Shown: positions 2,461-23,828, counted from the stretch's first letter. The stretch: DNA of 62,572 nt from an uncultured Thermoleophilia bacterium (GCA_903862845.1 CAIOZS010000059.1:1-62572), one strand, 5' to 3'. Notes: generated by a model from the letters alone, not told the origin. Numbers and translations: made by a program.

Positions 2461-3966
2461 TCAGCCGCCGAAGATCAGCCTCACAGCCCCTTCGGCAGCC
2501 TTGAGCAGCGGCTCGGGGAACAGGCCGACCACGAGCACGCCCGCTGCGGCGAGGCTCACGGCCACCGTGACGCCGAGCTGCGACGACTTGGGCTCGGCCT
2601 CCATCTCGGCGCCCTGCGGCGCCTCGCGGAAGTACATGTACCAGACGACGCGCAGATAGTAGTAGGCGGACACCGAGCTCATGATGACGGCCACGATAGC
2701 CAGCCACGTGAGATTTGCCTGCACGACCGCGGTGAACAGGTAGAACTTGCCCCAGAAGCCTATCGTCGGCGGGATGCCGGTGAGCGACACCATGAACACG
2801 GCCATGAGGATCGCCGCCCAAGGCATCGTGCGAGCGAGCCCGCCGATCTCGCCGAGGGTATACGCGAACTTGCGGCGGTTGCGGATCCAGATGAGCACGC
2901 CGAAAGCCCCGAGGTTCATCAGCGCGTAGGCGAACAGGTAGAACAGAATGGCGGCGATGCCCAGAGGCTTGCCCGACGTGCCGGCGGCGATGAGGCCGAG
3001 CGTGAGATACCCGGCGTGGGCGATGCTCGAGTAGGCGAGCATGCGCTTGAGGTTGCGCTGCGGCAGCGCCAGCACGTTCCCGACGACCATCGTGAGCACG
3101 GCGAGGATCGTCATCGTGTGTGCCCACGTCTGCCACTGCAGACCGGCGGCGGCCACGAACAGCCGCGCGAAGCCCGCGAAGGCGGCCGCCTTGACGCCCG
3201 TCGCCATGAAGGCGGTAACGGGCGTGGGAGCGCCCTCGTAGACGTCCGGCGCCCAGTTGTGGAAGGGCACCGCCGAGATCTTGAAGCCGAAGCCGGTGAC
3301 GACCAGCACGAAGGCCACGACGAGGAAGCCGCGCGCGTCGAGACCCGAGAGCTTGGCGAGCCCGGCGGCGATGCCGGAGTAGGTGGTCTGCCCCGAGGCG
3401 CCGTAGACCAGCGCCAGGCCGAAGGCGAGGATGGCCGACGAGAAGGCGCCGGTCACAAAGTACTTGATCGACGCCTCGCCGGAGCGCTCGTCGCGCCACA
3501 GGTAGCCGGCGAGCACATAGGTGGGCAGCGACATGAGCTCGAACGAGACGAAGAAGGCCACGACGTCCGTGCTCACGACCATGCCAATCATGCCGGTGAT
3601 GACGAGCAGCAGCAGGCCGTAGAACTCACCACGAGCCGCCTTGCGCCGGGCCAGGTAGGCGTCGGAGAGCATGATCGTCGCGACGCCGATGCCGGCGAAC
3701 AGCACGACGCAGAACAGAGCATACTTGTCGAGCGAGACCATGCCGGCAAAGCCGGTCTGCGGCTTCCGGGCGTTGAAGTGCAGGCCGTTCGACACGCTGA
3801 TCCATTGGCCGACGGCCACGGCCGCGCCGGTGATGAGCCCGGCGGCCGCGATCCAGGCGAGCACGGCCTTGCGCGCCACGAACAGGTCGACGAGGAAGAC
3901 GACGAACGCGCCTACGGCCACGACCACGCCGGGCAGGATCACGACGACGGCGTTGCCGGCGTTCAT
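2461..3966 (-). CDS. nuoN: NADH-quinone oxidoreductase subunit N
   Basis: 501-aa polytopic antiporter-like protein with NuoN-type sequence. It is the last gene of the nuo operon, directly after nuoM (stop 3967, start 3966). Confidence 0.93.
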   Translation of the reverse strand: MNAGNAVVVILPGVVVAVGAFVVFLVDLFVARKAVLAWIAAAGLITGAAVAVGQWISVSNGLHFNARKPQTGFAGMVSLDKYALFCVVLFAGIGVATIMLSDAYLARRKAARGEFYGLLLLVITGMIGMVVSTDVVAFFVSFELMSLPTYVLAGYLWRDERSGEASIKYFVTGAFSSAILAFGLALVYGASGQTTYSGIAAGLAKLSGLDARGFLVVAFVLVVTGFGFKISAVPFHNWAPDVYEGAPTPVTAFMATGVKAAAFAGFARLFVAAAGLQWQTWAHTMTILAVLTMVVGNVLALPQRNLKRMLAYSSIAHAGYLTLGLIAAGTSGKPLGIAAILFYLFAYALMNLGAFGVLIWIRNRRKFAYTLGEIGGLARTMPWAAILMAVFMVSLTGIPPTIGFWGKFYLFTAVVQANLTWLAIVAVIMSSVSAYYYLRVVWYMYFREAPQGAEMEAEPKSSQLGVTVAVSLAAAGVLVVGLFPEPLLKAAEGAVRLIFGG

Positions 3967-5583
3967 CTAGAACAACCCCTTCGCCGCATCGACCAGCTGC
4001 GCCACCCCGTGCGCCTGGGCGCTCTGCAGCGACGGCGTGACCCTGTGGAGGATCTCCTGTACCGGCAGGTGGAGGAAGTCGAGGAGCGTGTTGGGGTACA
4101 CGCCCACCCAGATCACGAGGACGACCAGGGGCACCAGGGTGAGGATCTCGCGAACGCCCAGGTCGCGCAGGCCCTCGGCGGCGGGCCTCACGTCTTCGTC
4201 GCCGCGGTCGTTGAACATGGTGCGCTGGAACATCCACAGCAGATAGGCGGCGGCGAGAATGACGCCCGTAGCGGCAATCGCCGCCAGCCAGTGCGAGTAG
4301 ACGAAGAGGCCGAGGAGGCTGAGGAACTCGCCGACGAAGCCGCTCAGCCCGGGCAGCCCGGCCGAACCGAAGACGAAGAAGAGGAAGAACCCGGCCATGA
4401 TCGGCATGGGCCGGGCCAGCAGCGCCATGTCGGCGATCTGGCGCGTGTGCGTGCGCTCGTACATGTACCCGACCATGAGGAACAGGGCGCCGGTGAGCAG
4501 GCCGTGGCTGAACATCACGAGGATGGCGCCCTCCATGCCTGCGGCGTTGTTGGCTACGGCGATGGCCGCGAAGATGCCGACCGTGACGAAGCCCATGTGG
4601 CTCACGCTCGAATAGGCAACGAGCTTCTTGAGATCCTTCTGGACCAGCGAGACAAGCGCGCCGTAGACGATGGCGATCACCGAAAGCACCACGATGTAGG
4701 GGATGAACGTCACGGCGGCGTCCGGGAAGAAGGGCAGGCAGAAACGCAGCATGCCGTACCCACCCATCTTGAGGAGCACGCCGGCGAGGATCACGGAGCC
4801 CGCCGTGGGAGCCTCGACGTGCGCGTCGGGGAGCCAGGTGTGCAGCGGGAACATCGGCACCTTGATGGCGAAGGCCAGGAAGAAGGCGAGGAAGGCCCAG
4901 AACTGCAGGTGGTACGTGTAGACCTGCCGGCTGAGCTCCTGGATGTTGAACGTCAGCCCGCCCGCCGTGTTGTCCTTGACGTAGTACACGACCACGATGA
5001 TGGCGACGAGCATGAGCAGGCTGCCGACCAGCGTGAAGAGGAAGAACTTGATGGCCGCATAGATGCGCCGCGGGCCACCCCAGATGCCGATGATGAAGTA
5101 CATCGGCACCAGCATGGCCTCCCAGAACACGTAGAAGAGGAAGAGGTCGGTGGCGCAGAACACGCCGGCCATGCCGACCTGTAGCAGCAGGAGCGAGATG
5201 AAGAAGCCCATCTCGCGATCCTTGACGTAGTTCCAGCTACCGAGGATCACGATGACGCCGAGCAGCGTCGTGAGGAACAGCAGAAGGGCGGCGATGCCGT
5301 CGACGCCCATGCCGTAGTGGATGTTGAGCGCTTTGATCCAGGTGAAGTTCTCGACGAACTGCATGCCGGGCGCCTTGGTGTCGAGGGCGACCAGCATGAC
5401 GATAGACAGAACGAACGCGGCCAGCGTGACGACCAGCGAAATGACCTTGTAGACGGCGGGCCGGCCGCGGCCGAACAGAAGCATCAGCAGCACGCCGGCC
5501 AGGGGCAGGAAGGTGATGACGCTGAGGATGGGGAAGCCGATCTGGGCGCTCCAGGTCACGTCACGACCCCCAGACCCAGGCAA
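3967..5583 (-). CDS. nuoM: NADH-quinone oxidoreductase subunit M
   Basis: 538-aa antiporter-like subunit with typical NuoM sequence (WLPDAHVEAPTAGSVILAGVLLKMGGYG). The track start is a TTG at 5583. An alternative GTG at 5559 lies 1 nt after the nuoL stop. Confidence 0.93.
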   Translation of the reverse strand: MPGSGGRDVTWSAQIGFPILSVITFLPLAGVLLMLLFGRGRPAVYKVISLVVTLAAFVLSIVMLVALDTKAPGMQFVENFTWIKALNIHYGMGVDGIAALLLFLTTLLGVIVILGSWNYVKDREMGFFISLLLLQVGMAGVFCATDLFLFYVFWEAMLVPMYFIIGIWGGPRRIYAAIKFFLFTLVGSLLMLVAIIVVVYYVKDNTAGGLTFNIQELSRQVYTYHLQFWAFLAFFLAFAIKVPMFPLHTWLPDAHVEAPTAGSVILAGVLLKMGGYGMLRFCLPFFPDAAVTFIPYIVVLSVIAIVYGALVSLVQKDLKKLVAYSSVSHMGFVTVGIFAAIAVANNAAGMEGAILVMFSHGLLTGALFLMVGYMYERTHTRQIADMALLARPMPIMAGFFLFFVFGSAGLPGLSGFVGEFLSLLGLFVYSHWLAAIAATGVILAAAYLLWMFQRTMFNDRGDEDVRPAAEGLRDLGVREILTLVPLVVLVIWVGVYPNTLLDFLHLPVQEILHRVTPSLQSAQAHGVAQLVDAAKGLF

Positions 5584-7456
5584 GGACGACGACCAGCACC
5601 AGCATGCCCGCGAAGATGGAGAAGGCGTAGTTCTGGACGCGCCCGGTCTGCAGGGGCCGCAGACGCTCGCCGAGAAGCTCCCAGAGGCGCGCGAGCCCGT
5701 TGACGGCGCCGTCGATGACCTTGACGTCGAAGAAGGTCCACAGCCAGCCGGCGAAGGCGATGGTGCTGCGGATGGGCACGACCTCGTAGACTTGGTCCAT
5801 GTACATCTTGTTGAACGACGCCTCGTAGGCGACCGGCAGGCGCGCCGCCAGGCGGCCCGGCAGCTCGGTGCGGCGGATGTACATCACGTAGGCCACGTAC
5901 ACGCCCAGCAAGGCGACGGCGACCGAGAACACCATGAGGCCGCCGCCCACGCCGACCCACACGAATTTCTCGCGCTCGACATCGAAGAAGACCGGCTGGA
6001 GGAACGTGTGGATCCAGCCGGTGTCCGGCGGCCAGCCTACGAGGATGCCGAGCAGCGCCGCCGGGATGGCGAGGAGCACCAGCGGGATGGTCATGACCTT
6101 GGCAGACTCGTGGATGTGGCGCTGCACCTCCTCGGAGGCGCGAGACTTGCCGAAGAAGGTCATGAAGATGAGGCGGAAGGCGAACACGGCCGTGAGGAAG
6201 GCCGTGACGATGCCGACCGCCCAGACCACGTAGTACCCGCCGCTGAAGTCGCTGCCGAGGATCTCGTCCTTGGCCCAGAAGCCGGCGAACGGGAAGACGC
6301 CGATGAGGGCGATCGCCCCGATGAGCATCGTCCAGAACGTGATGGGGATCTTCTTGCGCAGCCCGCCCATGTTGCGCATGTCCTGCTCGCCGCCCATGGC
6401 GTGGATCACCGAGCCCGAGCACAGGAAGAGGAGGCCCTTGAAGAAGCCGTGCGCGAAGAGGTAGAAGATGCCGGCCGCCCACGCCCCGGCGCCGAGCGCC
6501 ATGAACATGAAGCCCAGCGACGAGATGGTGGAGTACGCGATCACCTTCTTGATGTCGTTCTGGGTGATCGCGATGTACGCCGAGTAGATGGCCGTGAACG
6601 TGCCGATGATCATCACGATGAGCATCGCCGTGTGCGCCTGGACGAACAGCGGGTAGGAGCGCGCGACCATGTACACGCCGGCGTTGACCATGGTCGCGGC
6701 GTGGATGAGCGCGCTGACCGGCGTGGGGCCTTCCATGGCGTCCGGCAGCCACACGTGCAGCGGGAACTGGGCGCTCTTGCCGACGGCGCCGGTGAACAGC
6801 AGCAGGCAGATCCAGAGCAGCGTGCCCGAGCCGATCATCTCGGCCTTGTCGAAGACGCCGGTGAACTGCAGCGTGCCGGTGGTGACGAAGATCAGGAACA
6901 TGCCGAGCGTGAAACCGAAGTCGCCGACGCGGTTGACGAGGAACGCTTTCTTGCCCGCCTGGCTGGCACTCTTCTTGCGGAACCAGAAGGAGATGAGCAA
7001 GTACGAGCAGAGGCCCACGCCCTCCCAGCCGAGGAAGAGGAGCAGGTAGTTGTTCGCGAGGATGAGCACGAACATCGCGAACATGAAGAGGTTGAGATAG
7101 GCGAAGAACCGGTAGTAGCCCGGGTCGTCCTTCATGTAGCCGATGGAGTAGTAGTGGACGAGCATGCCGATGATGCCGACGACCAGAAGCATGATGCCGG
7201 TGAGCGGGTCGACGAGGAAGCCCCACTCGACGGTGAAGCGGCCCGCGGCCACCCAGGAGAAGGCGTTCCACACAAAGGCCGTGTCCGGATGCCGAACGAC
7301 CCACTCGAAGGCGTAGACCGAGAGCACGGCCGTAACCGTGACAAGCGCCACCGGAAGGATGTGCGACCTGGCGCGGAAGAGACGCTTACCGAGCAGCAGC
7401 GTGATGATGAAGCCGGCCAGCGGCAGCAGCACGATGAGTGCCACGGCGATCTTCAT
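5561..7456 (-). CDS. nuoL: NADH-quinone oxidoreductase subunit L
   Basis: Antiporter-like subunit with a long C-terminal extension typical of NuoL (HVWLPDAMEGPTPVSALIHAATMV). The track start is a GTG at 7474. The ATG at 7456 (MKIAVALIV) is preceded by GGAGGGG and is preferred. Confidence 0.93.
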   Translation of the reverse strand: MKIAVALIVLLPLAGFIITLLLGKRLFRARSHILPVALVTVTAVLSVYAFEWVVRHPDTAFVWNAFSWVAAGRFTVEWGFLVDPLTGIMLLVVGIIGMLVHYYSIGYMKDDPGYYRFFAYLNLFMFAMFVLILANNYLLLFLGWEGVGLCSYLLISFWFRKKSASQAGKKAFLVNRVGDFGFTLGMFLIFVTTGTLQFTGVFDKAEMIGSGTLLWICLLLFTGAVGKSAQFPLHVWLPDAMEGPTPVSALIHAATMVNAGVYMVARSYPLFVQAHTAMLIVMIIGTFTAIYSAYIAITQNDIKKVIAYSTISSLGFMFMALGAGAWAAGIFYLFAHGFFKGLLFLCSGSVIHAMGGEQDMRNMGGLRKKIPITFWTMLIGAIALIGVFPFAGFWAKDEILGSDFSGGYYVVWAVGIVTAFLTAVFAFRLIFMTFFGKSRASEEVQRHIHESAKVMTIPLVLLAIPAALLGILVGWPPDTGWIHTFLQPVFFDVEREKFVWVGVGGGLMVFSVAVALLGVYVAYVMYIRRTELPGRLAARLPVAYEASFNKMYMDQVYEVVPIRSTIAFAGWLWTFFDVKVIDGAVNGLARLWELLGERLRPLQTGRVQNYAFSIFAGMLVLVVVLAWVWGS

Positions 7457-7482
7457 GTACTGGGTCCCCTCCACGCGCGCTC

Positions 7483-7791
7483 CTAGCCCTTGAGCTCGTC
7501 GTACTGGTCGGTCTGCACGGTGCGGCGATTGCGGTAGTTGGCGATCACGATGGCGAGCCCCACGGTGACCTCAGCGGCGGCCAGCGTGATAATGAACAGC
7601 GAGAACAACGTGCCGGCGCCGAGCGCCCCGGCGCGGAAGTTGGAGATTGCCACGAGCGCGATGTTGACGGCGTTCAGCATGAGCTCGAGGCACATCACGA
7701 CGACGATGACGTTGCGGCGCACGAGCACCCCGAAAGCGCCGATGCAGAACAGCAGGACGGCCAACGTGAGCCACCAGTAAAGGGCGTTCAC
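7483..7791 (-). CDS. nuoK: NADH-quinone oxidoreductase subunit K
   Basis: 102-aa, 3-TM protein 'VNALYWWLTLAVLLF...LAAAEVTVGLAIV' with the conserved membrane Glu. It is the C-terminal part of track ORF 7483..8313. The GTG at 7791 overlaps the nuoJ stop by 4 nt. Confidence 0.9.
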   Translation of the reverse strand: MNALYWWLTLAVLLFCIGAFGVLVRRNVIVVVMCLELMLNAVNIALVAISNFRAGALGAGTLFSLFIITLAAAEVTVGLAIVIANYRNRRTVQTDQYDELKG

Positions 7792-8300
7792 GACTTCTCC
7801 TCTTCCTTGCGCGCCAGCACGAGGGCGCCGATCATCGCGGCCACGAGCACCAGCGAGACCAGCTCGAACGGGAAGACGTAGCCTTTGAAGAGAAGCAGCG
7901 AGATGCCCTTGACGCTGGGGTTGAGCGCTTTGTCGCCGATCTGGCCGACGTCGGCGGTGACCACAACAACCGTGAGGACGGCGGCGGCGGCCACCGCCAG
8001 GGGCGCCGCAAGCACGGCCTGCCGGTTGAAGAACAGATCGTAGCCGCCGTCCTGCACCTCGGTGAGCATGATCGCGAAGATGATGACGATCGAGATGGCG
8101 CCCACGTACACGAGGATCTGCACGACGGCCACCAGGGGCGCGTTGAGCAGCGCGTAGGCGAAGGCCACGCCGAGGAAGCAGGCGACCATGGAGGCGGCGG
8201 AGTACATGACCTTCTTGAAGGCCACGACGCCGAGGCCGCAGATGAGGATCCAGGCGGCGAGGATGAAGAACAGCCAGGGATGGAAGTCGCCGCCCGGCAT
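7788..8300 (-). CDS. nuoJ: NADH-quinone oxidoreductase subunit J
   Basis: 170-aa membrane protein with NuoJ-like sequence (VQILVYVGAISIVIIFAIML). ATGA overlap with the upstream 825-aa gene. Confidence 0.9.
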   Translation of the reverse strand: MPGGDFHPWLFFILAAWILICGLGVVAFKKVMYSAASMVACFLGVAFAYALLNAPLVAVVQILVYVGAISIVIIFAIMLTEVQDGGYDLFFNRQAVLAAPLAVAAAAVLTVVVVTADVGQIGDKALNPSVKGISLLLFKGYVFPFELVSLVLVAAMIGALVLARKEEEKS

Positions 8301-10777
8301 CAGGCGCCGTCATCCGGTTCGTCGAGCGCGATGGGATCGTCCTTGATGGGCGCCCACGTCCAGCCTTGGCCGAGCACGGCGTCGCGGACGTGCGGCACGA
8401 GGTCGGTCACGGTCTCGCGCAGCGGGTCGACGCGGCGCGGCTCGCGTACGTAGAGCGACTCGCGCGCCATGGTCGTGCGATTGTAGCCGGCGAGCTCGAA
8501 GAAGTCGCTCTGCTCGAGGGCGTCGTAGGGGCATACCTCCACGCACTCGCCGCAGAAGATGCAGCGACTCTCGTCGAGGTCGTAGCTCCCCAAGAGGCGC
8601 GGGTTGGTCTCGATGGAGCCGGTGGGGCAGGTTTCGGCGCACTTGCCGCACGAGACGCAGCCGACGAGCTGCAGCGGCAGGTTGTCGGCCGTGGAGACGA
8701 TGGTGTCGTAGCCGCGGCCCATGTTGTCGTAGCAGCTCGCGCCCACTTCCATGCGGCAGACGCGCACGCAGCGGCCGCAGTTGATGCAGCGGTTGGGCTC
8801 GCGCATGATGAAATCGTGGCGGAAATCGGCGGGGTAGTCGTGGGCCTCGCCGCCGTGAAAACGGTTCTTGAAGACCTCGTACTCGATGCCGTAGCGCTGC
8901 AGGTCGCACTTGCCGTTCGCCGGGCAGTAGCAGTCGAGGCACAGCTCGGCGCCGCGCACAGCCTCTTCTTCGCTGAAGCCCAGCTCGATCTGCTTGAAGT
9001 TGGTGCGCCGGTCCTCGGGCGCGCGCTTGGGCATCTCGGCGGGCGGGCTGGGCCGCGTCACGTCGGTGGTCATGTCGATGAACACCGGCGGGATCTCGGC
9101 CATGCGCGCAATGCGCGGATCGAGGTCGGTCCGGGACGTGAGCGCGTTGAAGAACGGCTGCGCCTTGAGCTCGGCGAGCGACTGCCCGAGCGCGGCCATG
9201 TCGGCGCCGCGCAGGTAGGCGTCCATGCTCCAGGCGGCCTTCTTGCCCTGGGCGACCGCCTGAATCACGGTCTGCGCGCCGAGCACCGCGTCGCCGCCGG
9301 CGAACACCCGCGGGTCGGCGGTTTGGAAGGTCCAGTCGTCGACGGCGATGGTGCGCCACTTGGTGCGCTTGACGCCCTGCTCCTCGCTGGTGCCGTCGAG
9401 CTTGGGGTACTGGCCGATCGCCGCGATGATCTGGTCGCACTCGACGATGAACTCGCTGCCTTCGATGGGTACGGGGCGGCGACGGCCGGAGGCGTCCGGC
9501 TCGCCGAGCTCCATGCGCAACATCTCGATGCCGGTGACCTTGTTGCTCGCGTTCGTGACGACCTTGACGGGCGCGCACAACAGCTCCAGCTTGACGCCCT
9601 CTTCCTCGGCCTCGTCCACCTCGCTGTGGTGGGCGGGCATCTCCTTGCGCGAGCGCCGGTAGAGACAGGTGACCTCTTCGGCGCCCTTGCGCACGGAGGT
9701 GCGGCAGGCGTCCATGGCGGTGAAGCCGCCGCCGATGACCGTGACCTTGTTCCCGACGTGGACCTCGCCGTTCAGCTCGAGATCGCCGAGAAAGTCGACC
9801 GCGGTGACGACGCCGTCGGCGTCTTCGCCGGGGATGCCCATGTCGTTGGAGTTGAAGGCACCCAGGGCCAGGAACACCGTGTCGTAGCCCTCGTCGAACA
9901 GATCCTCGAGCTGGTAGTCGACGCCGAGGCGACTGCCGACCTGGATCTCGACGCCCATGCGCCACAGTACGTTGATCTCCTTGTCGAGGAGGTCGCGCGG
10001 CAGGCGGTAGCTGGGGATGCCGTAGCGCAGCATGCCGCCCGGCTTGGGCAGCGCCTCGAAAATCTTGACCGCGTGCCCCTCGAGCCGCGCGTAGAAAGCG
10101 GCGGCGAGGCCGGCGGGGCCGCCGCCGACGATCGCGATGCGCTTGCCGGAGTCGGGCTTGGGCTCGACCGGCAGCAGCAGCTCGCCGGTCTGCTCCTCGT
10201 CGATGGTCTGATCTGCCATGAATCGGTGAAGCTGGCAGATCGTGATCGGGTGCTCGACGAGCTGCCGCCGGCAAGGACCCTCGCAGGGCCGCGGGCAGAC
10301 GCGTCCGAGCACGGCCGGGAAAGGCAGATCCTCGCGCAGCTTGCGCACGCCGTTCTTGTAGTCCTTGTGCGCGATGTAGTCGAGGAACTGCGGGATCTTG
10401 ATGTGCGTGGGGCAGGCGTCGCGGCAGGGCGGCGTGCAGAAGGAGTTGTGGTCGCTGAGCAGCAGCTCGAGGTACAGGTGACGCATGGCGCGCACCTTGT
10501 CGGTGTTCGTGTGCACGACCATACCGTCGGAGACGGCCGCCGAACAGCTCGGCAGCATCTTGCGCGCGCCCTCCACCTCGACGATGCACATGCGGCAAGC
10601 GGCGGTGGCCGGCAGCCGCGGCTCGTAGCAGAGCGTCGGGATATGGATGCCCACGCGCTGCGCCGCCTCGAGGATGGTGTCGCCGCGCTCGCCGGCGACC
10701 TCCTGACCATCGATGGTCAGGAGCACCTGGTCTGGACGCGCCTGCGTGCGCGTGACGTCGTCGGCGGTGGTGGCCAT
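8300..10777 (-). CDS. Fusion protein made of a NuoG/FdhA-type N-terminal [2Fe-2S], a GltD-type FAD/NAD(P)H oxidoreductase, a 2x[4Fe-4S] domain and a NuoI C-terminal half
   Basis: The N-terminus 'LTIDGQEVAGERGDTILEAA...CRMCIVEVEG' is a 2Fe-2S ferredoxin. The GltD part shows 'CPRPCEGPCRRQ', 'IAIVGGGPAGLAAAFYA..GGMLRYGIPSYRLP' and 'VTVIGGGFTAMD..YRRSRKEMPA'. The dicluster domain shows 'CINCGRCVRVC...CVSCGKCAETCPTGSI'. The last ~100 aa, 'SYDLDESRCIFCGECVEVCPYDALEQSDFFELAGYNRTTMARESLYV', match the second half of NuoI/TYKY. SD-like AAGGGGA lies before the ATG at 10777. Confidence 0.85.
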   Translation of the reverse strand: MATTADDVTRTQARPDQVLLTIDGQEVAGERGDTILEAAQRVGIHIPTLCYEPRLPATAACRMCIVEVEGARKMLPSCSAAVSDGMVVHTNTDKVRAMRHLYLELLLSDHNSFCTPPCRDACPTHIKIPQFLDYIAHKDYKNGVRKLREDLPFPAVLGRVCPRPCEGPCRRQLVEHPITICQLHRFMADQTIDEEQTGELLLPVEPKPDSGKRIAIVGGGPAGLAAAFYARLEGHAVKIFEALPKPGGMLRYGIPSYRLPRDLLDKEINVLWRMGVEIQVGSRLGVDYQLEDLFDEGYDTVFLALGAFNSNDMGIPGEDADGVVTAVDFLGDLELNGEVHVGNKVTVIGGGFTAMDACRTSVRKGAEEVTCLYRRSRKEMPAHHSEVDEAEEEGVKLELLCAPVKVVTNASNKVTGIEMLRMELGEPDASGRRRPVPIEGSEFIVECDQIIAAIGQYPKLDGTSEEQGVKRTKWRTIAVDDWTFQTADPRVFAGGDAVLGAQTVIQAVAQGKKAAWSMDAYLRGADMAALGQSLAELKAQPFFNALTSRTDLDPRIARMAEIPPVFIDMTTDVTRPSPPAEMPKRAPEDRRTNFKQIELGFSEEEAVRGAELCLDCYCPANGKCDLQRYGIEYEVFKNRFHGGEAHDYPADFRHDFIMREPNRCINCGRCVRVCRMEVGASCYDNMGRGYDTIVSTADNLPLQLVGCVSCGKCAETCPTGSIETNPRLLGSYDLDESRCIFCGECVEVCPYDALEQSDFFELAGYNRTTMARESLYVREPRRVDPLRETVTDLVPHVRDAVLGQGWTWAPIKDDPIALDEPDDGA

Positions 10778-10784
10778 CGTCCCC

Positions 10785-12689
10785 TTACGCTTTCTGACCG
10801 CTGGTCACGACGGCTTGCTCGATGCCCGAGCGCACCTTGACGGCGTCGAACTTGCACACCTGGCGGCAGGTGTCGCACTTGATGCACGCGCTCACGTCGA
10901 TCACGTGGGGCTGCTTCCGCTCGCCGCTGATGCAGTCGGTGGGGCATTTCTTGGCGCACAGCAGGCAGCCGGTGCAGGCCTCAGCGTCGATGTAGTACGT
11001 GATCAGCGCCTTGCACCTGCCGGCGGGGCAGCGCTTCTCGCTGACGTGCGCCTCGTACTCCTCACGGAAGTACTTGAGGGTGGTGAGCACGGGGTTGGGC
11101 GCGGTGCCGCCGAGCGCGCACAGCGTACCGTCGATGATGTAGTGGCTGAGCTCTTCGAGGAGCTCGATGTCGCCGGCCTGGCCGTCGCCGGCGATGATGC
11201 GGTCGAGCGTCTCGAGCATGCGCTTGGTGCCGAGGCGGCAGGGCACGCACTTGCCGCAAGACTCCTTCTGCGTGAAGTCGAGGAAGAAGCGCGCCAGGTC
11301 GACCATGCAGGTCTCGTCGTCGACCACGACCATGCCGCCGGAACCGACGATGGCGCCGGTCGCAGCGAGGCTCTCGTAGTCGACCGGCGTGTCGAGAAGG
11401 CTCGCCGGGATACAACCCCCCGACGGACCGCCGAGCTGCACGGCCTTGAACTGCCGGCCGTTCTTGATGCCGCCGCCGACGTCGAAGATCAGGTGACGCA
11501 GGCTCGTGCCCATCGGCACTTCGACGAGCCCGCCGTTCACGACCTTCCCGGCCAGGCTGAAGGCCTTCGTGCCGCGGCAGTGCTCGACGCCCAGCGCCGC
11601 GTAGGCGTCGGCGCCGTGCATGATGATCCAGGGGATGTTGGCGAAGGTTTCGACGTTGTTGATGTTGGTGGGCTTGCCCCACAGTCCCGACACCGCGGGA
11701 AACGGCGGGCGCGTGCGCGGCATGCCGCGCTTGCCTTCGATGCTGGCGATGAGCGCGGTCTCCTCGCCGCAGACAAAGGCGCCGGCGCCAAGCTTGAGGT
11801 GCAGGTTGAGCTCCCAGCCGCTGCCGAAGGCGTCCTTGCCGAGATAGCCGCGCGCTTCGGCGTCGGCGACGGCCTTGGTGAGGCGCTTCACGGCCAGCGG
11901 GTACTCGGCGCGCACGTACACGTAGCCCTCGTGCGCGCCGATCGCGTAGCTGCCGATGATCATGCCTTCGATGACGGCGTGCGGGTCGCCCTCGAGGATC
12001 GAGCAGTCCATGAACGCCCCGGGATCGCCCTCGTCGGCGTTGCAGATGATGTACTTCTCGTCGCTGCGGCTCTGGCTCGCGAACTTCCACTTGACGCCCG
12101 TGGGAAAGCCGGCGCCGCCGCGGCCGCGGATGCCCGAGTCGGTGACGTGTTCCACGATCCACTCGGGCGTCTGCTCGGTGAGGGCCATGCGCGCGGCCTC
12201 GTAACCGCCGCGCGCCAGATACTCCTCGATGCTCTCGGGGTCGATGACGCCCACGTCACGCAGGGCGATGCGCGTCTGCTGCTTGTAGAAGCCGATCTCG
12301 TGCCAGTCGCGGATGCGCACGCCGGTCTGGGCGTCCCTGTAGAGGAACTTCTCGACGGGCGCGCCGCCCTTGAGGTGCTCCTCGACGACCCTGCCGACGT
12401 CGTCGGGGCGCAGGTGGCCGTAGAGGGTGTCGTCGCTGAGCACGACCACCGGGCTCATGGAGCACAGGCCGTGGCAGCCGATGATCGAGACTTCCACGCG
12501 GTCGCCGAGGCCGGCCGTCTGGACCTCCTCGACAAAGGCGTCGTGGACGGCCAGCGAGCCCGCAAACACGCAGGCGGTGCCTGCGCAGACGGTGACCCGG
12601 TAGCCGCCGCCGGGCCGCCGGGCGACGCGCACGTTGCGCGCGTCGGTCTCGTTTGTCGTCACGTCGCCTGTCATGCTGTCCTCGCTCAC
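10785..12689 (-). CDS. NuoF-like FMN/NADH-binding subunit of HydB/HoxF/FdsB type, with an extra N-terminal thioredoxin-like [2Fe-2S] and a C-terminal 2x[4Fe-4S] domain
   Basis: 'GIRGRGGAGFPTGVKWKF' marks the FMN site. 'NADEGDPGAFMD' and 'ESCGKCVPCRLGTKRM' mark the N3-type cluster. The N-terminal 'VCAGTAC...GCHGLCSMSP' has the Cx4C...Cx3C pattern. The C-terminal 'CTGCLLCAKKCP' and 'CIKCDTCRQVC' form the dicluster. GTGA overlap with the upstream gene. Confidence 0.88.
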   Translation of the reverse strand: MSEDSMTGDVTTNETDARNVRVARRPGGGYRVTVCAGTACVFAGSLAVHDAFVEEVQTAGLGDRVEVSIIGCHGLCSMSPVVVLSDDTLYGHLRPDDVGRVVEEHLKGGAPVEKFLYRDAQTGVRIRDWHEIGFYKQQTRIALRDVGVIDPESIEEYLARGGYEAARMALTEQTPEWIVEHVTDSGIRGRGGAGFPTGVKWKFASQSRSDEKYIICNADEGDPGAFMDCSILEGDPHAVIEGMIIGSYAIGAHEGYVYVRAEYPLAVKRLTKAVADAEARGYLGKDAFGSGWELNLHLKLGAGAFVCGEETALIASIEGKRGMPRTRPPFPAVSGLWGKPTNINNVETFANIPWIIMHGADAYAALGVEHCRGTKAFSLAGKVVNGGLVEVPMGTSLRHLIFDVGGGIKNGRQFKAVQLGGPSGGCIPASLLDTPVDYESLAATGAIVGSGGMVVVDDETCMVDLARFFLDFTQKESCGKCVPCRLGTKRMLETLDRIIAGDGQAGDIELLEELSHYIIDGTLCALGGTAPNPVLTTLKYFREEYEAHVSEKRCPAGRCKALITYYIDAEACTGCLLCAKKCPTDCISGERKQPHVIDVSACIKCDTCRQVCKFDAVKVRSGIEQAVVTSGQKA

Positions 12690-13447
12690 CCTTTCTCGGC
12701 GCCGATCTCATGCATGAGATCGCGGATGATCTTGCGCGTCTTGTCGGGGGTGAGGCCGCCGTAGGTCATGGCGCCGATGCGCATCACCGGAGCCTGAGAG
12801 CACGCCCCCATGCAGGCCACCGAGGACAGCGTGAACTTCATGTCGCTGGTGGTCTTGCCGTCGGGGACGCCGAGCTCTTCCTCCAGGGCTTCGGTAATCT
12901 GCACGGCTCCCGCCACGTGGCAGGCCGTGCCGTGGCATACGTCGATGATGTGCTCGCCCACCGGCGAGAGGCGGAACTGGTTGTAGAAGCTGGAGACGCC
13001 GTAGATCTGCGACAGCGATACGCCGGTCTGCAGCGAGATCTCCTGGATCGCGAGGCGCGGCAGATACCCGTACGCCTCCTGCGCGTTCTGCAGCATGGCG
13101 ATGAGGCCGGTGCCGTGCTCGTAGTAGTCGTCGAGCACCGGCTGCAGCGGCTTGAGGTCGACGCCGGGCTGCGCGGCGAGGCGCGCCTCGGCGAGGCGCG
13201 CCGCGTTGGGCACGGGCAGCAAATACTTGCTCGTGTAGTTGACGCGGATGACCTGCACGGGGCAGTTGCTCTCGCAGAGCGTGCAGGAGCGGCAGCGCGG
13301 CTCGCCGCCGGCGGGGTCGACAACCACGCGAAAGAGGCCGCGGCTACGCTCGGGCAGCCGTTCGCGCTGCTCCGGGTACTGGACGGTGATCTTCCTCATC
13401 GGCAGATGCTTGAGGGTGGTGCGCATGGCCTTGAACATGCCGAGCAT
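12686..13447 (-). CDS. Fusion protein: NuoI N-terminal half (one 4Fe-4S motif) joined to a NuoE-type thioredoxin-like [2Fe-2S] domain
   Basis: The N-terminus 'MRKITVQYPEQRERLPERSRGLFRV...CRSCTLCESNCPVQVI' matches the NuoI/Nqo9 N-terminal region but carries only one CxxCxxCxxxCP. The C-terminal part, 'LQNAQEAYGYLP...VSSFYNQFRL...DVCHGTACHVAGA...VACMGACSQAPVM', is NuoE-like. ATGA overlap with the nuoH stop. Confidence 0.85.
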   Translation of the reverse strand: MLGMFKAMRTTLKHLPMRKITVQYPEQRERLPERSRGLFRVVVDPAGGEPRCRSCTLCESNCPVQVIRVNYTSKYLLPVPNAARLAEARLAAQPGVDLKPLQPVLDDYYEHGTGLIAMLQNAQEAYGYLPRLAIQEISLQTGVSLSQIYGVSSFYNQFRLSPVGEHIIDVCHGTACHVAGAVQITEALEEELGVPDGKTTSDMKFTLSSVACMGACSQAPVMRIGAMTYGGLTPDKTRKIIRDLMHEIGAEKG

Positions 13448-14565
13448 CAGGCGTTCACCACCGGAAGACGGTCACGCTGCCGGCGCAGGCGCCACTTGAG
13501 GATGGGGTCGAGCAGGACCACGAACGCGAAGAAAGCGACCCAGCTGAATACGGCCATGCCCAGCTTCCAGTGCGGGATCCACAGCATGACGGCCGCCGTG
13601 GCGAGGATGTTGAGCAGGCCCAGCGGGATGAGGATCTTCCAGGCGAATGCCATGAGCTGGTCGACCTGGAGGCGCGGCAGCGAGAGGCGGATCCAGACCA
13701 GCGCGAAGACGAGGATGTAGACCTTGATCAGGAACCAGATGATGCCGATCCACGACACGCCCCAGAAGACGACGGCGCCGGCGAACGGCCCCTGCCAGCC
13801 GCCGAAGAACAGCGTGACGGCGATCATCGACATGATGGTGAGGCCGGCGTACTCGTTGAGGAAGAACATGCCGAAGCGCATCCCCGAGTACTCGGTGCCG
13901 TAGCCCGAGACCAGCTCGGACTCGGACTCGGGCAGGTCGAACGGGCCGCGGTTCAGCTCGGCGATGGAGGAGATGTAGAAGATGAGGAACGTGAAGGGCG
14001 CGTAGAACGCGATCCACTGGTAGCCGGCCTGGGCGGCGACGACGTCGCCGATGCGCAGCGAGCCCGCGATCATGGCGACGATGAGCAAGCCGAGGATCAT
14101 GGGGATCTCGTAGGAGATCATCTGGGCGGCGGCGCGCAGCGCGCCGACCAGCGAGTACTTGTTGCGCGACGACCAGCCGCCGAGAAGGATGGCCATCGTC
14201 GTGAAGCCGGTGATGGCGACGATGAAGATGAGCCCGACGTCGAGGCCGGTGGCCGTCATGCCGCTGGTGTACGGGATCACGAGCTGCACGGCGACGGCGC
14301 CGATCATGACCATGATCGGCGCCAGAGTGAACAGCACGGGGTCGGCAAGGAGCGGACGAAAGTCCTCCTTGCCCATCATCTTGAAGGCGTCGGCGATGCT
14401 CTGCAGCACGCCGTGCGGCCCGGTGCGGTTGGGGCCGTGCCGATCCTGCATGAAAGCCAGAACGCGGCGCTCGAAGACGATGTTGACAAGCGCCGCCACG
14501 AACACCACCGCATAGGCGATGACGACAAAGACCACGGCGCGGAGGATGGCGAGGAAGGTGTCCAC
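13447..14565 (-). CDS. nuoH: NADH-quinone oxidoreductase subunit H
   Basis: 'ERRVLAFMQDRHGPNRTGPHGVLQSIADAFKMMGKEDF' and 'SELVSGYGTEYSGMRFGMFFLNEY' are NuoH/ND1 signatures. The GTG start lies 1 nt after the nuoD stop. Confidence 0.94.
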   Translation of the reverse strand: MDTFLAILRAVVFVVIAYAVVFVAALVNIVFERRVLAFMQDRHGPNRTGPHGVLQSIADAFKMMGKEDFRPLLADPVLFTLAPIMVMIGAVAVQLVIPYTSGMTATGLDVGLIFIVAITGFTTMAILLGGWSSRNKYSLVGALRAAAQMISYEIPMILGLLIVAMIAGSLRIGDVVAAQAGYQWIAFYAPFTFLIFYISSIAELNRGPFDLPESESELVSGYGTEYSGMRFGMFFLNEYAGLTIMSMIAVTLFFGGWQGPFAGAVVFWGVSWIGIIWFLIKVYILVFALVWIRLSLPRLQVDQLMAFAWKILIPLGLLNILATAAVMLWIPHWKLGMAVFSWVAFFAFVVLLDPILKWRLRRQRDRLPVVNA

Positions 14566-14566
14566 G

Positions 14567-15781
14567 CTAGCGGTCGATACCTCCGAGCACCAGGTCGATG
14601 CTGCCCGAGATGGCCACCGCGTCGGCGATCTTGTTGCCGCGTAGAAGCTTGGGGAAGAGCTGCAGGTTGCAGAAGCACGGGTCGCGAAACTTGAGCCGGT
14701 ACGGGTACCGCGACCCGTCGCTGACGATGTACGTGCCGTACTCGCCGCGCGGGTTCTCCTGGCCGGTGTAGCACTCGCCCGGCGGCGGCGTGATGACGTA
14801 GGGGGCGCGCAGAGAGCCGAGCTGCACAGGGCCTTTGGGCAGCATGTCGAGCGCCTGCTCGACGATCTTGACCGACTCGCGCATCTCGTCCATGCGCACC
14901 TGATAGCGGTCGAAGACGTCGCCGTGGCTCTCGGTGCACACCTTGAAGTCGAGCTCGGGGTACACGGAGTACGGGCGCGTGCGCCGCAGGTCGTGAGCGA
15001 CGCCCGAGGCGCGCGCGCACGGACCGGTGATGCCGTAGTCGATCACGTCCTGCTGGGTGATGACGCCCTTGCCGACGCAGCGCTGCAGGAAGATGGCGTT
15101 GTCCTGCACCAGCGACTCGTACTCGTCGATGAGCTTGGGCAGCCGCTTCATGAGGTCGCGGCATTTCTCGACCCAGCCGTCGGGCAGGTCGTAGCGCAGC
15201 CCGCCGAAGCGGAAGTAGTTGAACATCATGCGCGCGCCGCTGACCTCCTCGAGGAGGTCGAGGATGTATTCGCGGTCGCGGAACATGTAGAAGACCATGG
15301 CGGTGCCGAGCGGCGCCAGGTCGGCGGTGAAGGTGCCGACCGCGACCTGGTGGCTGGCGATCCGGTTGAGCTCGGCCATGATGACGCGGATGACCTCCGC
15401 GCGCCGCGGCGGCCGGATCCCGGCGAGCTTCTCGACGGTCATCACGTAGCCCCACTCGCAGTTCATGCCGGCCACGTACTCGGTGCGGTCGACGATGGGG
15501 ATGTACTGATAGTACGTGCGCTTCTCGGCGAGCTTCTCTTTGCAGCGATGCAGGTAGCCAATGACGGGGATGACGTCTTTGACGAGCTCGCCGTCGAGCG
15601 TGACGACGAGCCGCAGCACGCCGTGCGTGCTGGGGTGCTGCGGCCCCATGTTGACCACCACTTCGTTGAAGGCGAGGCCCTCGACGTTGGAGCCCTCGCC
15701 GCGGGCCGTCGACTCCTCGATGCGGCGCAGCGCGAGCTTGACGGCCTCGTCGGGTTCGGGCGTGGCGAACTGGTCAAGCAT
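14567..15781 (-). CDS. nuoD: NADH-quinone oxidoreductase subunit D
   Basis: 'VVNMGPQHPSTHGVLRLVVTLDGE' and the C-terminal 'ISGSIDLVLGGIDR'. The track ORF extends to 15910 across nuoC. The ATG at 15781 (MLDQF) overlaps the nuoC stop by 8 nt and gives a normal 404-aa NuoD. Confidence 0.93.
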   Translation of the reverse strand: MLDQFATPEPDEAVKLALRRIEESTARGEGSNVEGLAFNEVVVNMGPQHPSTHGVLRLVVTLDGELVKDVIPVIGYLHRCKEKLAEKRTYYQYIPIVDRTEYVAGMNCEWGYVMTVEKLAGIRPPRRAEVIRVIMAELNRIASHQVAVGTFTADLAPLGTAMVFYMFRDREYILDLLEEVSGARMMFNYFRFGGLRYDLPDGWVEKCRDLMKRLPKLIDEYESLVQDNAIFLQRCVGKGVITQQDVIDYGITGPCARASGVAHDLRRTRPYSVYPELDFKVCTESHGDVFDRYQVRMDEMRESVKIVEQALDMLPKGPVQLGSLRAPYVITPPPGECYTGQENPRGEYGTYIVSDGSRYPYRLKFRDPCFCNLQLFPKLLRGNKIADAVAISGSIDLVLGGIDR

Positions 15782-16268
15782 GCGGGTGGTTTTCCACGAG
15801 GTCGACGTAGTCTTTGCGCAGCGGATGCCCGACGAAGTCGTCCTTGAGCAGAATGCGGCGCAGGTCGGGATGCCCGAGATACCTGATCCCGACCATGTCC
15901 CACGACTCACGCTCGTGCCAGTCGGCGGCCGGCCACACGTCGCAGACGGTGTCGATCTCGGCCCTGGACTTGGGCACCTCGACGTGAAGCTCCAGGTACG
16001 TGTTGGTCTTCCAGGAGTACACGTGGTACACGCTCTCCAGGTGCCTGAGCCTGTCGACGCCGGCGACGAAATTGAGCGTCTCGTAGCCGATCTCGGGGTG
16101 CGCTTTGAGGCGCCGGGCCACGTCCTTGAGGGCGGCGCGGTCGCAGCGCGCCACGACCGTATCGGGCTCCTGCACGCGCACGTCCGTGAGCGCGGCGGCG
16201 AAGTCGGCGACGAGGCGCGCGGCGATGGCGTCCATGTCCATGGGGTTGGTGCCGATCTCGAGGCCCAC
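15774..16268 (-). CDS. nuoC: NADH-quinone oxidoreductase subunit C
   Basis: 164-aa protein with the 30-kDa subunit signature 'ADWHERESWDMVGIRYLGHPDLRRILL'. Confidence 0.9.
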   Translation of the reverse strand: MGLEIGTNPMDMDAIAARLVADFAAALTDVRVQEPDTVVARCDRAALKDVARRLKAHPEIGYETLNFVAGVDRLRHLESVYHVYSWKTNTYLELHVEVPKSRAEIDTVCDVWPAADWHERESWDMVGIRYLGHPDLRRILLKDDFVGHPLRKDYVDLVENHPHA

Positions 16269-16270
16269 GG

Positions 16271-16819
16271 TCAGGCCTCCCCGGCGGCGGCCGGCGGCGG
16301 CGTCAGGGCGGCCGGCCTTGGGGTCTCGGCGACGAACTTGTGCTGCTGGATCTTGACCTGCAGCTCCAGCAGCCCCTGGAACAGCGCCTCGGGGCGCGGC
16401 GGGCAGCCCGGGATGTAGACGTCGACGGGCACGATCTTGTCGACCCCGTTGACCACGTTGTAGCCGTCATAGAAAGGCCCGCCGCTGGTGGCGCAGGCGC
16501 CCATGCTGATGACCCACTTGGGCTCCGACATCTGGTCGTAGAGACGCTTGAGGACAGGCGCCATCTTCTCGTTGACGGTGCCGGCGACGATCATGAGGTC
16601 GCACTGGCGCGGCGTGGGCCGGAAGACCTCCATGCCGTACCGCGCGACATCGAAGCGCGCGAAACCGGAGCTCAGCATCTCGATGGCGCAGCAGGCGAGC
16701 CCGTAGGTGAACGGGAAGACAGAGTGCGAGCGCGCCCAGCTGAAGATGAAGTCGGCGGTCGTGGTGATGACGTTGGGCTCCTGGAAGTGCTCCAGCTTGG
16801 GGTAGCGCATCAGGCCCAT
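16271..16819 (-). CDS. nuoB: NADH-quinone oxidoreductase subunit B
   Basis: '[14 protein letters not shown]', '[14 protein letters not shown]' and '[15 protein letters not shown]' supply the N2 cluster ligands. This is the C-terminal 182 aa of track ORF 16271..17440. The ATG at 16819 overlaps the nuoA stop. Confidence 0.93.
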
Positions 16820-17178
16820 TCGAGGGCCCCCTTGCGCCAGGCGTACAGAAGACCGAAGCCCAGCACGGCGATGAAGAGGAGCATCTCGACAAACCCGGCC
16901 GTGCCCAAGGTGCGGAACACGAGCGTCCAGGGGAACAGGAACACGGCCTCCACGTCGAAGACCAGGAACAGCAACCCGAACACGTAGTACCGCACCGCGA
17001 AGGGCGCCCACGGGTTGCCCACGGGAGGGATGCCGCACTCGTAGGGCGCCAGTTTCTCCGCCGTGAGGTGGCTCGGATTGATGAGCTTGGAGAAGAGCAG
17101 GATGAGCACGACAAGCGCACCGCCGGCGGCGATGAAGAACCACACGTAGAGCCAGTTGGTGAGGTATTCGCTCGTCAT
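16810..17178 (-). CDS. nuoA: NADH-quinone oxidoreductase subunit A
   Basis: 122-aa, 3-TM protein with '[43 protein letters not shown]'. The ATG at 17178 (MTSEYL) was chosen. The track extension to 17346 is a low-complexity leader. Confidence 0.9.
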
Positions 17179-21040: not shown

Positions 21041-21652
21041 TCACCAGCTCTCGTAGCGCTCGGAGCCCTTGCGGTACTCCTTGACCTCCTGCCCCATGCC
21101 TTCGGCGATGGTCAGGATCCGGCACGTCATCTCAAAGACGCTGGTGAGCTGATAGGCCTCTTCCAGCAGGTGGCCGATGGCAAAGGGTCCGTGGCCGCGC
21201 AGCATGACGAGGTCGTACTCCTTGAGCCACGTCGAAAGCAGCCCGGCCACCTCGACAGACCCGGCCGTGAGCTCGGCCGACACGACGGGCACCTTGTGCA
21301 ACAGGTAGGAACCCTCGCTGTCGACGGGCACGATCTCGTCGCAGACCAGCGAGCGCGCGATGGCATACGGCGGATGCACGTGCACGATGGCCTGCGCCGA
21401 CGTGCCCAGGTAGATGGCGCGGTGCACACCGATCTCGGTGGAGGCCAGCATCACGTTGGCGTCGTTCTCCTCGAGGCCCGTCTCGATGATGTCGCGCTCC
21501 TCGAGCCGCGCGAGCATGGAGCCGCGGCGCGTGATGAGGATGCGGTCGCCCTGGCGCACGCTCAGATTGCCGCCGTGCGAGCTGATGGCCCCTGCGAGGA
21601 AGAGGTCGCGGCCGATGCTGTGGAACTGCTCGAGGACGGCGGAGTCGCTCAC
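21041..21652 (-). CDS. Class II aldolase/adducin-family protein
   Basis: 203 aa from the GTG at 21652. 'SSHGGNLSVR', 'ITRRGSML', 'STEIGVHRAIY..AIVHVHPPYA' and 'MLRGHGPFAIG' fit the fuculose-phosphate aldolase/MtnB fold with metal-binding His. GTGA overlap with the aor stop. Confidence 0.8.
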   Translation of the reverse strand: MSDSAVLEQFHSIGRDLFLAGAISSHGGNLSVRQGDRILITRRGSMLARLEERDIIETGLEENDANVMLASTEIGVHRAIYLGTSAQAIVHVHPPYAIARSLVCDEIVPVDSEGSYLLHKVPVVSAELTAGSVEVAGLLSTWLKEYDLVMLRGHGPFAIGHLLEEAYQLTSVFEMTCRILTIAEGMGQEVKEYRKGSERYESW

Positions 21653-23472: not shown

Positions 23473-23479
23473 GCAATGA

Positions 23480-23755: not shown

Positions 23756-23828
23756 GGCGTGACCAGAGAGGGGCTGCGGCCCGGACGGGCGGCGTTGGCG
23801 CCGCCCGTCCGGGCCGCAGGGCTCTCCC

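Follow-up and report, generated by a model that had tools for sequence, protein, structure and literature searches.

The question raised by this locus is how complex I can be assembled when its operon contains no intact nuoI gene and when three genes of another electron-input module lie where nuoI should be. The DNA that we have analysed is a stretch of 62,572 nt from an uncultured Thermoleophilia bacterium (GCA_903862845.1 CAIOZS010000059.1:1-62572), to which, taken whole, we refer as the window. From 2461 to ~17180 its minus strand carries a single tight string of 13 genes, in which NCBIfam and Pfam scans identified the order nuoA-B-C-D-H-[253 aa]-[634 aa]-[825 aa]-J-K-L-M-N, the same that a first-pass annotation had read from the DNA, and the three open reading frames (ORFs) named by their length are located at 12686..13447, 10785..12689 and 8300..10777. 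The 253-aa protein begins with the N-terminal half of NuoI and the 825-aa protein contains the other half near its C-terminus. We consider it rather probable that the operon encodes a proton-pumping variant of complex I, functioning as an NAD(P)H (perhaps also ferredoxin):menaquinone oxidoreductase in which the clusters N6a and N6b are built across two polypeptides, a judgement that covers architecture and function jointly.

The two halves of NuoI are complementary. Residues 8-73 of the 253-aa protein match positions 2-65 of the 121 positions of the NuoI model TIGR01971 (E 6e-13; 48.4 bits), and residues 725-770 of the 825-aa protein match positions 69-114 of the same model (E 8e-15; 54.6 bits). 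Both matches bear out the earlier claim that the first protein opens as NuoI, with one cluster motif, before becoming a NuoE-type protein, and that the second one ends with the missing part. The first segment, I_N (residues 1-73; 13229..13447, minus strand as all genes of the operon), has the NuoI-specific N-terminus and one CxxCxxCxxxCP motif (C52, C55, C58, and C62), which is the only such motif of the 253-aa protein. The second segment, I_C (residues 723-775; 8453..8611), has the second CxxCxxCxxxCP motif (C739, C742, C745, and C749) and the FFEL...Y...L.Y region of NuoI, and the C-terminal stretch that matches the NuoI model includes SYDLDESRCIFCGECVEVCPYDALEQSDFFELAGY. When both halves were joined in silico, positions 2-115 of the model were covered in a single stretch (93.7 bits, E 6e-27), and the re-joined protein could be aligned with the solved chains of mitochondrial NDUFS8 and bacterial NuoI, colinearly over residues 4-118 and with a single one-residue gap (E 4e-18). 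According to the alignment with these structures, the break point is in the segment that joins both cluster motifs (...IRVNYTSKY / GSYDLDESRC...). In ferredoxin folds of the 2x[4Fe-4S] type this segment is a hairpin, which would bring the new C- and N-termini side by side.

The cassette that separates the two halves is composed of three proteins. In the 253-aa protein I_N is followed by a linker of ~30 residues and by a NuoE/BfuC-type thioredoxin-like [2Fe-2S] domain (residues 104-244; PF01257 2Fe-2S_thioredx, E 2e-46; C171, C176, C212, and C216), which together occupy 12686..13228; the protein scores 143.1 bits in the NuoE equivalog model NF005722 (cut-off 141). The 634-aa protein is a flavoprotein of the BfuB/HydB/StnB type with an N-terminal thioredoxin-like [2Fe-2S] domain, an FMN/NADH domain, an N3-type [4Fe-4S] cluster, and a C-terminal 2x[4Fe-4S] ferredoxin domain (in Pfam, 2Fe-2S_thioredx 24-104, Complex1_51K, NADH_4Fe-4S, and Fer4 565-616). 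Its closest solved chains, all of the BfuB type, are 7t2r_B, 9n5u_B (NfnB), and 8oh5_B (StnB), with E <=1e-237 in each case, and it stays below the cut-off of the NuoF equivalog TIGR01959 (501.7 vs 558.65). Taken together, the 634-aa and 253-aa proteins have the architecture of the BfuBC core of the Bfu family, as BfuB and BfuC, respectively.

The 825-aa protein, in its residues 1-722 (8612..10777), is StnC/NfnA-like. It has a NuoG/HydA-like N-terminal cluster chain with an inserted GltD/NfnB-like domain, as expected of a BfuA subunit, and it contains Fer2_4 ([2Fe-2S]), Fer4_20, Pyr_redox_2, and Fer4_Nqo3 domains. These correspond to a GltD/NfnB-like FAD/NADPH domain with two [4Fe-4S] clusters (~114-524), an N5-like Cys motif, and a ferredoxin domain with two motifs (C664-C674 and C707-C717). 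Most of the Pfam domains that had been anticipated (2Fe-2S_thioredx, Fer2_4, Fer4_20, and Pyr_redox_2) were therefore found in the cassette, but NADH-G_4Fe-4S_3 was not detected in the 825-aa protein, which has Fer4_Nqo3 instead. Over residues ~19-744 it matches 9bov_A (E 1e-188), StnC (8oh5_C, E 2e-166), and NfnA (9n5u_A, E 4e-158), and its score in the NuoG equivalog TIGR01973 is far from the cut-off (113 vs 470). Judging from these matches, the cassette resembles the Stn/Nfn-Bfu transhydrogenases more than it does ordinary NuoEFG; the E/F/G-like module that had been proposed does lie between the nuoI halves, but its type is BfuC/BfuB/StnC-like. The GGGFTAMD...LYRRSR region of the GltD-like domain aligns with StnC, and from what is known of GltD and NfnB we take it to be the NADPH 2'-phosphate-binding motif. 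The StnC-type match stops at about residue 744 and the remainder of the protein is the NuoI half, so that no FdhF-like C-terminal domain is present. In StnC this domain is an off-pathway (dead-end) branch with clusters C1/C2 and has been described as an evolutionary remnant (PMC10482914).

The count of cluster motifs bears directly on how the halves could function. Towards the C-terminus of the 825-aa protein there are three CxxCxxCxxxC motifs (664-674, 707-717, and 739-749). The solved structure of StnC contains six [4Fe-4S] clusters and one [2Fe-2S] cluster (PMC10482914), a number that, by our reckoning, is reached only if the ferredoxin domain made up by the first two motifs has both of its clusters. 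By homology to StnC these two motifs make up a complete two-cluster ferredoxin domain, and therefore the motif at 739-749 is left without a partner in cis. The 253-aa protein has, besides its single motif, only the four Cys of the [2Fe-2S] site. One orphan motif in each protein adds up to one complete two-cluster domain, and the motif count thus supports complementation in trans. Taken alone, the assembly of the NuoI halves in trans, with N6a/N6b shared by two polypeptides, seems to us quite likely. Past the end of the NuoI model the 825-aa protein extends for 50 more residues (776-825; 8300..8452), a moderately conserved tail with 70% mean identity and near-invariant L786, E788, D792-V797, G803, G805, and W808, which may contact NuoJ/H or another subunit.

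In the operon, a three-subunit flavin/iron-sulfur module of the Stn/Nfn-Bfu type stands in place of NuoEFG and has its genes inside nuoI, the first NuoI half being fused to the N-terminus of the NuoE-like subunit and the second one to the StnC-like subunit, immediately after its terminal ferredoxin domain. In the mechanism that we propose, I_N and I_C would re-associate to form one 2x[4Fe-4S] domain with N6a and N6b, each cluster being ligated by three Cys of one chain and a fourth one of the other. The re-formed domain would dock on NuoB/D/H, clamp the module to the membrane arm and wire it to N2. With I_C starting only ~14 residues after the ferredoxin domain of the 825-aa protein, the cluster chain would be held beside N6a, like the N5/N4 domain of NuoG in canonical complex I, and the linker of I_N would tether the NuoE-like subunit. 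The 634-aa protein has the FMN/NADH site and the GltD-like domain has that for FAD/NAD(P)H; electrons from NADH (through FMN) and NAD(P)H (through FAD) would converge in the cluster chain of the 825-aa protein and pass by N6a, N6b, and N2 to menaquinone, the typical quinone of Actinobacteria, and protons would be pumped by NuoH/J/K/A/L/M/N. Ferredoxin could be a third substrate, for which the ferredoxin-type domain of the 634-aa protein and the neighbouring genes for aldehyde:ferredoxin oxidoreductase (AOR) and indolepyruvate/2-oxoacid:ferredoxin oxidoreductase (IOR) leave room, and a bifurcating or confurcating operation would be possible. Assembly in trans, substrate specificities, acceptor quinone, and direction of electron flow are what we infer in this scheme.

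The FAD-proximal cluster region of the 825-aa protein (residues 114-184; 10226-10438, minus strand) matters for the chemistry. In NfnABC the FAD-proximal [4Fe-4S] cluster has a Lys in the position of a Cys (K170 in S. ovata and K165 in T. sibiricus), a residue that has been reported as common to all of them and as necessary for bifurcation (PMC12018979). The 825-aa protein lacks it, as K170 of StnC aligns to His184, which is invariant in 41 sequences; C114 of StnC corresponds to Ile128 and there is an additional Cys181, all of them invariant in the 41 members. The same set of His184, Ile128, and Cys181 is found in a paralogue encoded in the window (32281-36465, minus strand), a protein of 1394 aa with 66% identity over residues 20-743. 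This paralogue retains the full Molybdop_Fe4S4/Molybdopterin/Molydop_binding half, with 'VDHCARLCHAS' providing Cys-His where formate dehydrogenase has its Sec/Cys-His active site, and is probably, to judge from its domains, a single-polypeptide NAD(P)H-linked Cys-type formate dehydrogenase. There are no BfuB or BfuC genes adjacent to it, and its neighbours include a probable rhomboid-family membrane protein (assigned by motifs only), a DAGK-type kinase, and an MFS transporter. Because a full-length paralogue of this formate dehydrogenase-GltD type, 66% identical, is present in the window, the 825-aa gene looks like a lineage-internal duplicate in which the catalytic domain has been swapped for half of NuoI.

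Several observations weigh against the assembly and the function that we propose. The 93.7 bits of the re-joined NuoI are below the curated cut-off of TIGR01971 (113.05 bits). Single-chain AlphaFold2 models with family alignments gave a predicted local distance difference test (pLDDT) of 85-95 for the NuoE-like domain and a confident GltD-like domain, but the values were low in every Fe-S-rich region, <50 for I_N and <35 for residues 615-825 of the 825-aa protein; as the latter region includes the ferredoxin domain known to fold in StnC, these low values speak neither for nor against complementation. Furthermore, in the solved Stn complex the NuoE-like subunit contacts StnB only and not StnC, and I_N must reach I_C through a linker of ~30 residues, in a geometry that is only predicted. 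Given the ligand changes at the FAD-proximal cluster, Nfn-like chemistry cannot be assumed. In addition, all the sources are metagenome-assembled genomes (MAGs) or metagenomes.

The explanation that competes best with a simple dual-input dehydrogenase keeps the same architecture with other chemistry: the Bfu-type core would be a quinone-linked bifurcating or confurcating device. NADH and reduced ferredoxin could jointly reduce menaquinone, as proposed for Nuo-Bfu; the oxidation of NAD(P)H could be split between menaquinone and ferredoxin, as in EtfABCX/FixABCX; or reverse flow driven by the proton motive force could produce NADPH or reduced ferredoxin. In fact, the 634-aa protein retains all the hallmark domains of BfuB, namely the N-terminal [2Fe-2S] domain, that for FMN and, at the C-terminus, the 2x[4Fe-4S] domain to which ferredoxin binds in NfnABC, genes for the ferredoxin-dependent AOR and IOR are near the operon, and confurcation has been proposed for Nuo-Bfu by Schut et al. 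(PMC9304861). However, the Lys critical for bifurcation in Nfn is a His in the 825-aa protein, a menaquinone sink would not thermodynamically require bifurcation, and a second lineage with the same split (contig L067, see below) has no ferredoxin domain at the C-terminus of its BfuB-like subunit, GltD being fused there instead. As that lineage lacks the BfuB ferredoxin domain, the feature common to both Nuo lineages is the input of NADH and NAD(P)H, and we regard a bifurcating or confurcating enzyme as unlikely.

To look for the same split elsewhere, an exhaustive search of 1.84 billion representatives was carried out with the 253-aa protein. Among the best 150 matches, an I_N-like segment fused to NuoE was found in only three cluster lineages (the Thermoleophilia cluster, P0123, and P0125), and the remaining ones were plain NuoE/HoxE-type proteins or other Fer4 fusions. 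The P0123 lineage is represented by contig L067 (L067:1321-6023, GC 49%), whose proteins share 38-55% identity with those of the window, and it is replicated from another sample by L070:2-2368; these two Logan samples provide the only two contigs known. The order in L067 is nuoH-[I_N::NuoE 251 aa]-[NuoF::GltD 1048 aa]-[HoxU-like::I_C 265 aa]-nuoJ-K-L-M-N. The GltD-like domain is thus on the NuoF-like subunit, which has no ferredoxin-type C-terminal domain, and the 265-aa protein ends in ...YRLDLSSCIYCGLCVESCPHDALETGSDYEL. Its re-joined halves reach 109.8 bits on the TIGR01971 model (cut-off 113.05). A search with the HoxU::I_C protein of L067 added one more member, P0406; P0454, P0493, and P0508 were inspected and discarded, as they are ordinary Fdh/NuoG-like fragments.

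In the P0125 lineage (contigs L068, 1804-7726; L069; and L071, 7819-15933; GC 70%) the split domain is found among clustered genes for pyruvate:ferredoxin oxidoreductase (POR), and nuo genes are absent from the vicinity. The order in this lineage is POR gamma, delta, alpha-[I_N'::NuoE]-[BfuB]-[StnC'::I_C'::POR beta (thiamine pyrophosphate, TPP)]. NuoI models are still the top match of the N-terminal segment in this context, but only from position ~22-35, so that the N-half is truncated. The split ferredoxin appears to have been re-used here as a connector to POR. The occurrence of the split NuoI-derived ferredoxin in three contexts argues for a working inter-subunit unit and against an accident. 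A wider idea, which we put forward tentatively and as the less expected outcome, is that this 2x[4Fe-4S] domain is a portable connector that plugs a Bfu-type module into a complex I arm in two lineages or into POR in the third one, and that the Thermoleophilia enzyme is a respiratory complex by which the pools of NADH, NADPH, and ferredoxin are all connected to menaquinone while protons are pumped, the underlying chemistry being a quinone-linked bifurcation or confurcation.

The POR-linked relatives (L068, L069, and L071) bring up another explanation, as they have the split domain, fused to POR beta, without nuo genes. The locus could then encode two enzymes: the 253-, 634-, and 825-aa proteins would form a soluble oxidoreductase of the Stn kind, with the split ferredoxin as a mere clasp between subunits, and the Nuo arm would use a NuoI from elsewhere or be a 10-subunit remnant. 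The absence of an intact nuoI that had been noted holds in the window, where tblastn (with the re-joined NuoI as query for nuoI) found no other NuoI-like gene and no second NuoE or NuoF, a search that did not extend to a separate nuoI in the rest of the genomes, which leaves this explanation some room and is a further point against our own. However, the cassette is exactly in the nuoI slot and overlaps nuoH and nuoJ by 1 nt each. Furthermore, the proteins in Nuo context retain the N-terminus of NuoI from model position 2, whereas those in POR context do so only from ~22-35, and the order does not change across ~56 genomes or in a second, distant lineage. Two separate enzymes are for these reasons clearly improbable.

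The details of the junctions are as follows. The nuoH/253-aa and 825-aa/nuoJ junctions are both TGATG with an overlap of 1 nt, and not the ATGA that had been described; the stop codon of the 253-aa gene does overlap the GTG start of the 634-aa gene by 4 nt (GTGA), as described. The 634-aa gene ends in TAA, followed by a gap of 7 nt with a Shine-Dalgarno-like AAGGGGA (AAGGGGAcg) before the ATG of the 825-aa gene. The gap of 1 nt between nuoD and nuoH (TAG-C-GTG) is also as previously read.

A third explanation accepts the complex but not the complementation: the last motif of the 825-aa protein would pair in cis with the preceding one, and the motif of the 253-aa protein would be vestigial or bind one cluster alone. 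Pfam Fer4_7 and Fer4_9 do align residues 707-753 of the 825-aa protein as one dicluster domain. By homology to the solved StnC, however, 707-717 pairs with 664-674 (Fer4_Nqo3 656-721), and on this basis the pairing of the last two motifs was rejected. Moreover, the four cysteines of I_N are 99-100% conserved, I_N is the best-conserved part of the 253-aa protein, and the halves cover complementary, non-overlapping parts of the NuoI model, all of which makes pairing in cis very improbable.

Trans complementation is also in line with how widely and how strictly the arrangement is conserved. A locus scan with one genome per species returned 66 loci, ~56 of which belong to MAGs of soils, lakes, and digesters that carry the label Thermoleophilia, Actinomycetes, or Actinomycetota, and the order B-C-D-H-253-634-825-J-K-L-M-N was found in every locus of sufficient length, so that the synteny looked for in relatives is there. 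More than 120 cluster representatives of the 253-aa protein have the same length, with 65-95% identity, and the 825-aa protein has >120 cluster representatives with 76-100% identity. The eight cysteines of the half motifs are 99-100% conserved (~120 protein clusters per protein), those of I_C being 100% conserved. Few segments of either protein are as well conserved as its NuoI half: I_N has a mean identity of 85%, the highest in the 253-aa protein (79% in the NuoE domain), and I_C of 87.5%. That the split could be an assembly artefact, a frameshift, or a decaying pseudogene, for which it can be said that all the assemblies are metagenomic and that several long-read loci have frameshifts, is excluded for practical purposes by recurrence and conservation, as the same intact ORFs occur under strong purifying selection in >100 protein clusters from many independent samples and assemblers. 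The claim of a tight, translationally coupled arrangement rather than an artefact is upheld by the ~56 species-level MAGs with this order and by an identical 825-aa protein present on 15 contigs.

Some loci of the scan deserve a separate comment. Two short contigs with the Thermoleophilia-type locus carry other taxon labels (L011, 89% identity, binned as 'Deltaproteobacteria', and L054, 74%, as 'Vicinamibacteria'), probably by binning contamination. Several long-read MFD loci (among L013, L026, and L052) have multiple frameshifts across the operon, which look like assembly errors and not pseudogenes.

The rest of the operon encodes all ten of the subunits A, B, C, D, H, J, K, L, M, and N. Upstream of the cassette are nuoA (16810..17178, start approximate, inferred from the translation; Pfam Oxidored_q4 E 3e-36), nuoB (16271..16819, start approximate; NCBIfam NuoB models), nuoC (15774..16268; TIGR01961 E 5e-35), nuoD (14567..15781, start approximate; NuoD models E <=1e-137), and nuoH (13447..14565; family scan). 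Downstream of it are nuoJ (7788..8300) and nuoK (7483..7788, start approximate), both by family scan, nuoL (5561..7474; NF005141 741 bits, cut-off 556), nuoM (3967..5583; TIGR01972 608 bits), and nuoN (2461..3966; TIGR01770 423 bits). The Q-module is intact, with the ligand motifs of cluster N2, including GCPP, in NuoB and the quinone-site motifs GPQHPSTHG (the His of HPSTHG) and DRTEY (the Tyr of RTEY) in NuoD; the roles of these residues are those established for Nqo6 and Nqo4 of T. thermophilus. NuoI as a single polypeptide with two CxxCxxCxxxCP motifs is absent from the operon.

At 4-11 kb from the nuo operon there is a ferredoxin-linked catabolic cluster (21649-28037, minus strand) with genes for AOR (21649-23472), an AMP-forming ligase (23829-25178), and the beta (25585-26181) and alpha (26178-28037) subunits of IOR, which suggests an anaerobic or facultative lifestyle with a pool of reduced ferredoxin. 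Furthermore, a 955-aa protein encoded at 40198-43065 (minus strand) joins an FAD-linked oxidase (GlcD/D-lactate dehydrogenase-like) to Fer4_8 and CCG (HdrD-like) domains and is a further candidate for a quinone- or heterodisulfide-linked dehydrogenase near the operon.

If the proposed assembly is true, this would be a natural Fe-S domain that the insertion of an entire cassette of three genes has split and that still works as part of two fusion proteins, and we know of no described example of such a domain split for complex I. With regard to the modularity of complex I, it would represent a third kind of solution for electron input beside NuoEFG and the docking of ferredoxin in the NDH-1 way, and the hypothetical "Nuo-Bfu" idea would gain an example that is covalently tethered and hence experimentally tractable. 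It also suggests that an uncultured lineage widespread in soils and sediments has a proton-pumping quinone reductase that takes electrons straight from NADPH and perhaps from ferredoxin. The source labels of the cassette proteins are generic ("NuoE", "FAD-dependent oxidoreductase", and "formate dehydrogenase major subunit"), and therefore pathway tools probably score complex I in such genomes as lacking NuoI, and probably NuoG.

The closest known systems share parts of this architecture. Canonical complex I with 14 subunits (NuoA-N; Nqo1-15 of T. thermophilus, the E. coli enzyme, and the mitochondrial core) has in common with it all the subunits of the membrane arm and the Q-module, the N2 and quinone-site motifs, the NuoE-like and NuoF-like domains, the NuoG-like N-terminal cluster chain, and a NuoI sequence spanning the whole NuoI model. 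The order is different, A-B-C-D-H-[I_N::E]-[F+]-[G'::GltD::I_C]-J..N here and ...D-E-F-G-H-I-J... in the canonical operon; in addition, NuoI is on two polypeptides here, the molybdopterin-like domain of NuoG is absent, and there are an added FAD/NAD(P)H domain and added Fe-S domains on the NuoF-like subunit. Complex I-like enzymes with 11 subunits (cyanobacterial and chloroplast NDH-1, or that of Desulfitobacterium; PMC11238625; PMC3144371) have the backbone A-B-C-D-H-I-J-K-L-M-N without E/F/G, into which the cassette appears to have been inserted. Those enzymes, however, have an intact NuoI and no built-in flavoprotein module, and their donor, where known, is ferredoxin.

Regarding the module itself, StnABC and NfnABC (PDB 8oh5, 9bov, and 9n5u; PMC10482914, PMC12018979) have the same three-gene domain architecture, with matches of E 1e-158 to 1e-242. 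They are soluble, whereas here the FdhF-like tail of StnC is replaced by a NuoI half, the NuoE-like subunit bears the first NuoI half, and K170 and C114 are changed to His184 and Ile128, with the new invariant Cys181. The predicted Nuo-Bfu (PMC9304861; Geobacter, Kuenenia, and NUO-2 of Nitrospina, PMC3578206), which of the published ideas comes nearest to this locus, also has a Bfu-type input module in the middle of a nuo cluster and a BfuB with added [2Fe-2S] and 2x[4Fe-4S] domains. It differs in having 14 subunits A-N, with BfuABC replacing NuoEFG and a separate, intact NuoI (PMC9304861), and not 13 genes with the cassette after nuoH between the nuoI halves, so that the present operon is not a Nuo-Bfu in that sense. 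Nuo-Bfu is itself a prediction, biochemically uncharacterised, reported from clades of Deferribacteres/Proteobacteria and of Planctomycetes/Nitrospirae, and the main text of that paper does not contain the terms 'Actinobacteria', 'split', 'fused', or 'GltD' (PMC9304861). In Mbx-like operons a GltD-type NAD(P)-binding flavoprotein is likewise tied to the NuoI position of a complex I-related membrane enzyme, but there the NuoI homologue is reported to be substituted (Degli Esposti 2015, PMC4758237), whereas here both halves are kept and flank a far larger module. The first-pass annotation had not recognised the arrangement as a described one, and full-text searches of the searchable literature gave us no account of NuoI being split. 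An alternative input module on complex I is not new in kind; what is new and, to that extent, structurally unprecedented is that an inserted operon divides one of the core Fe-S subunits.

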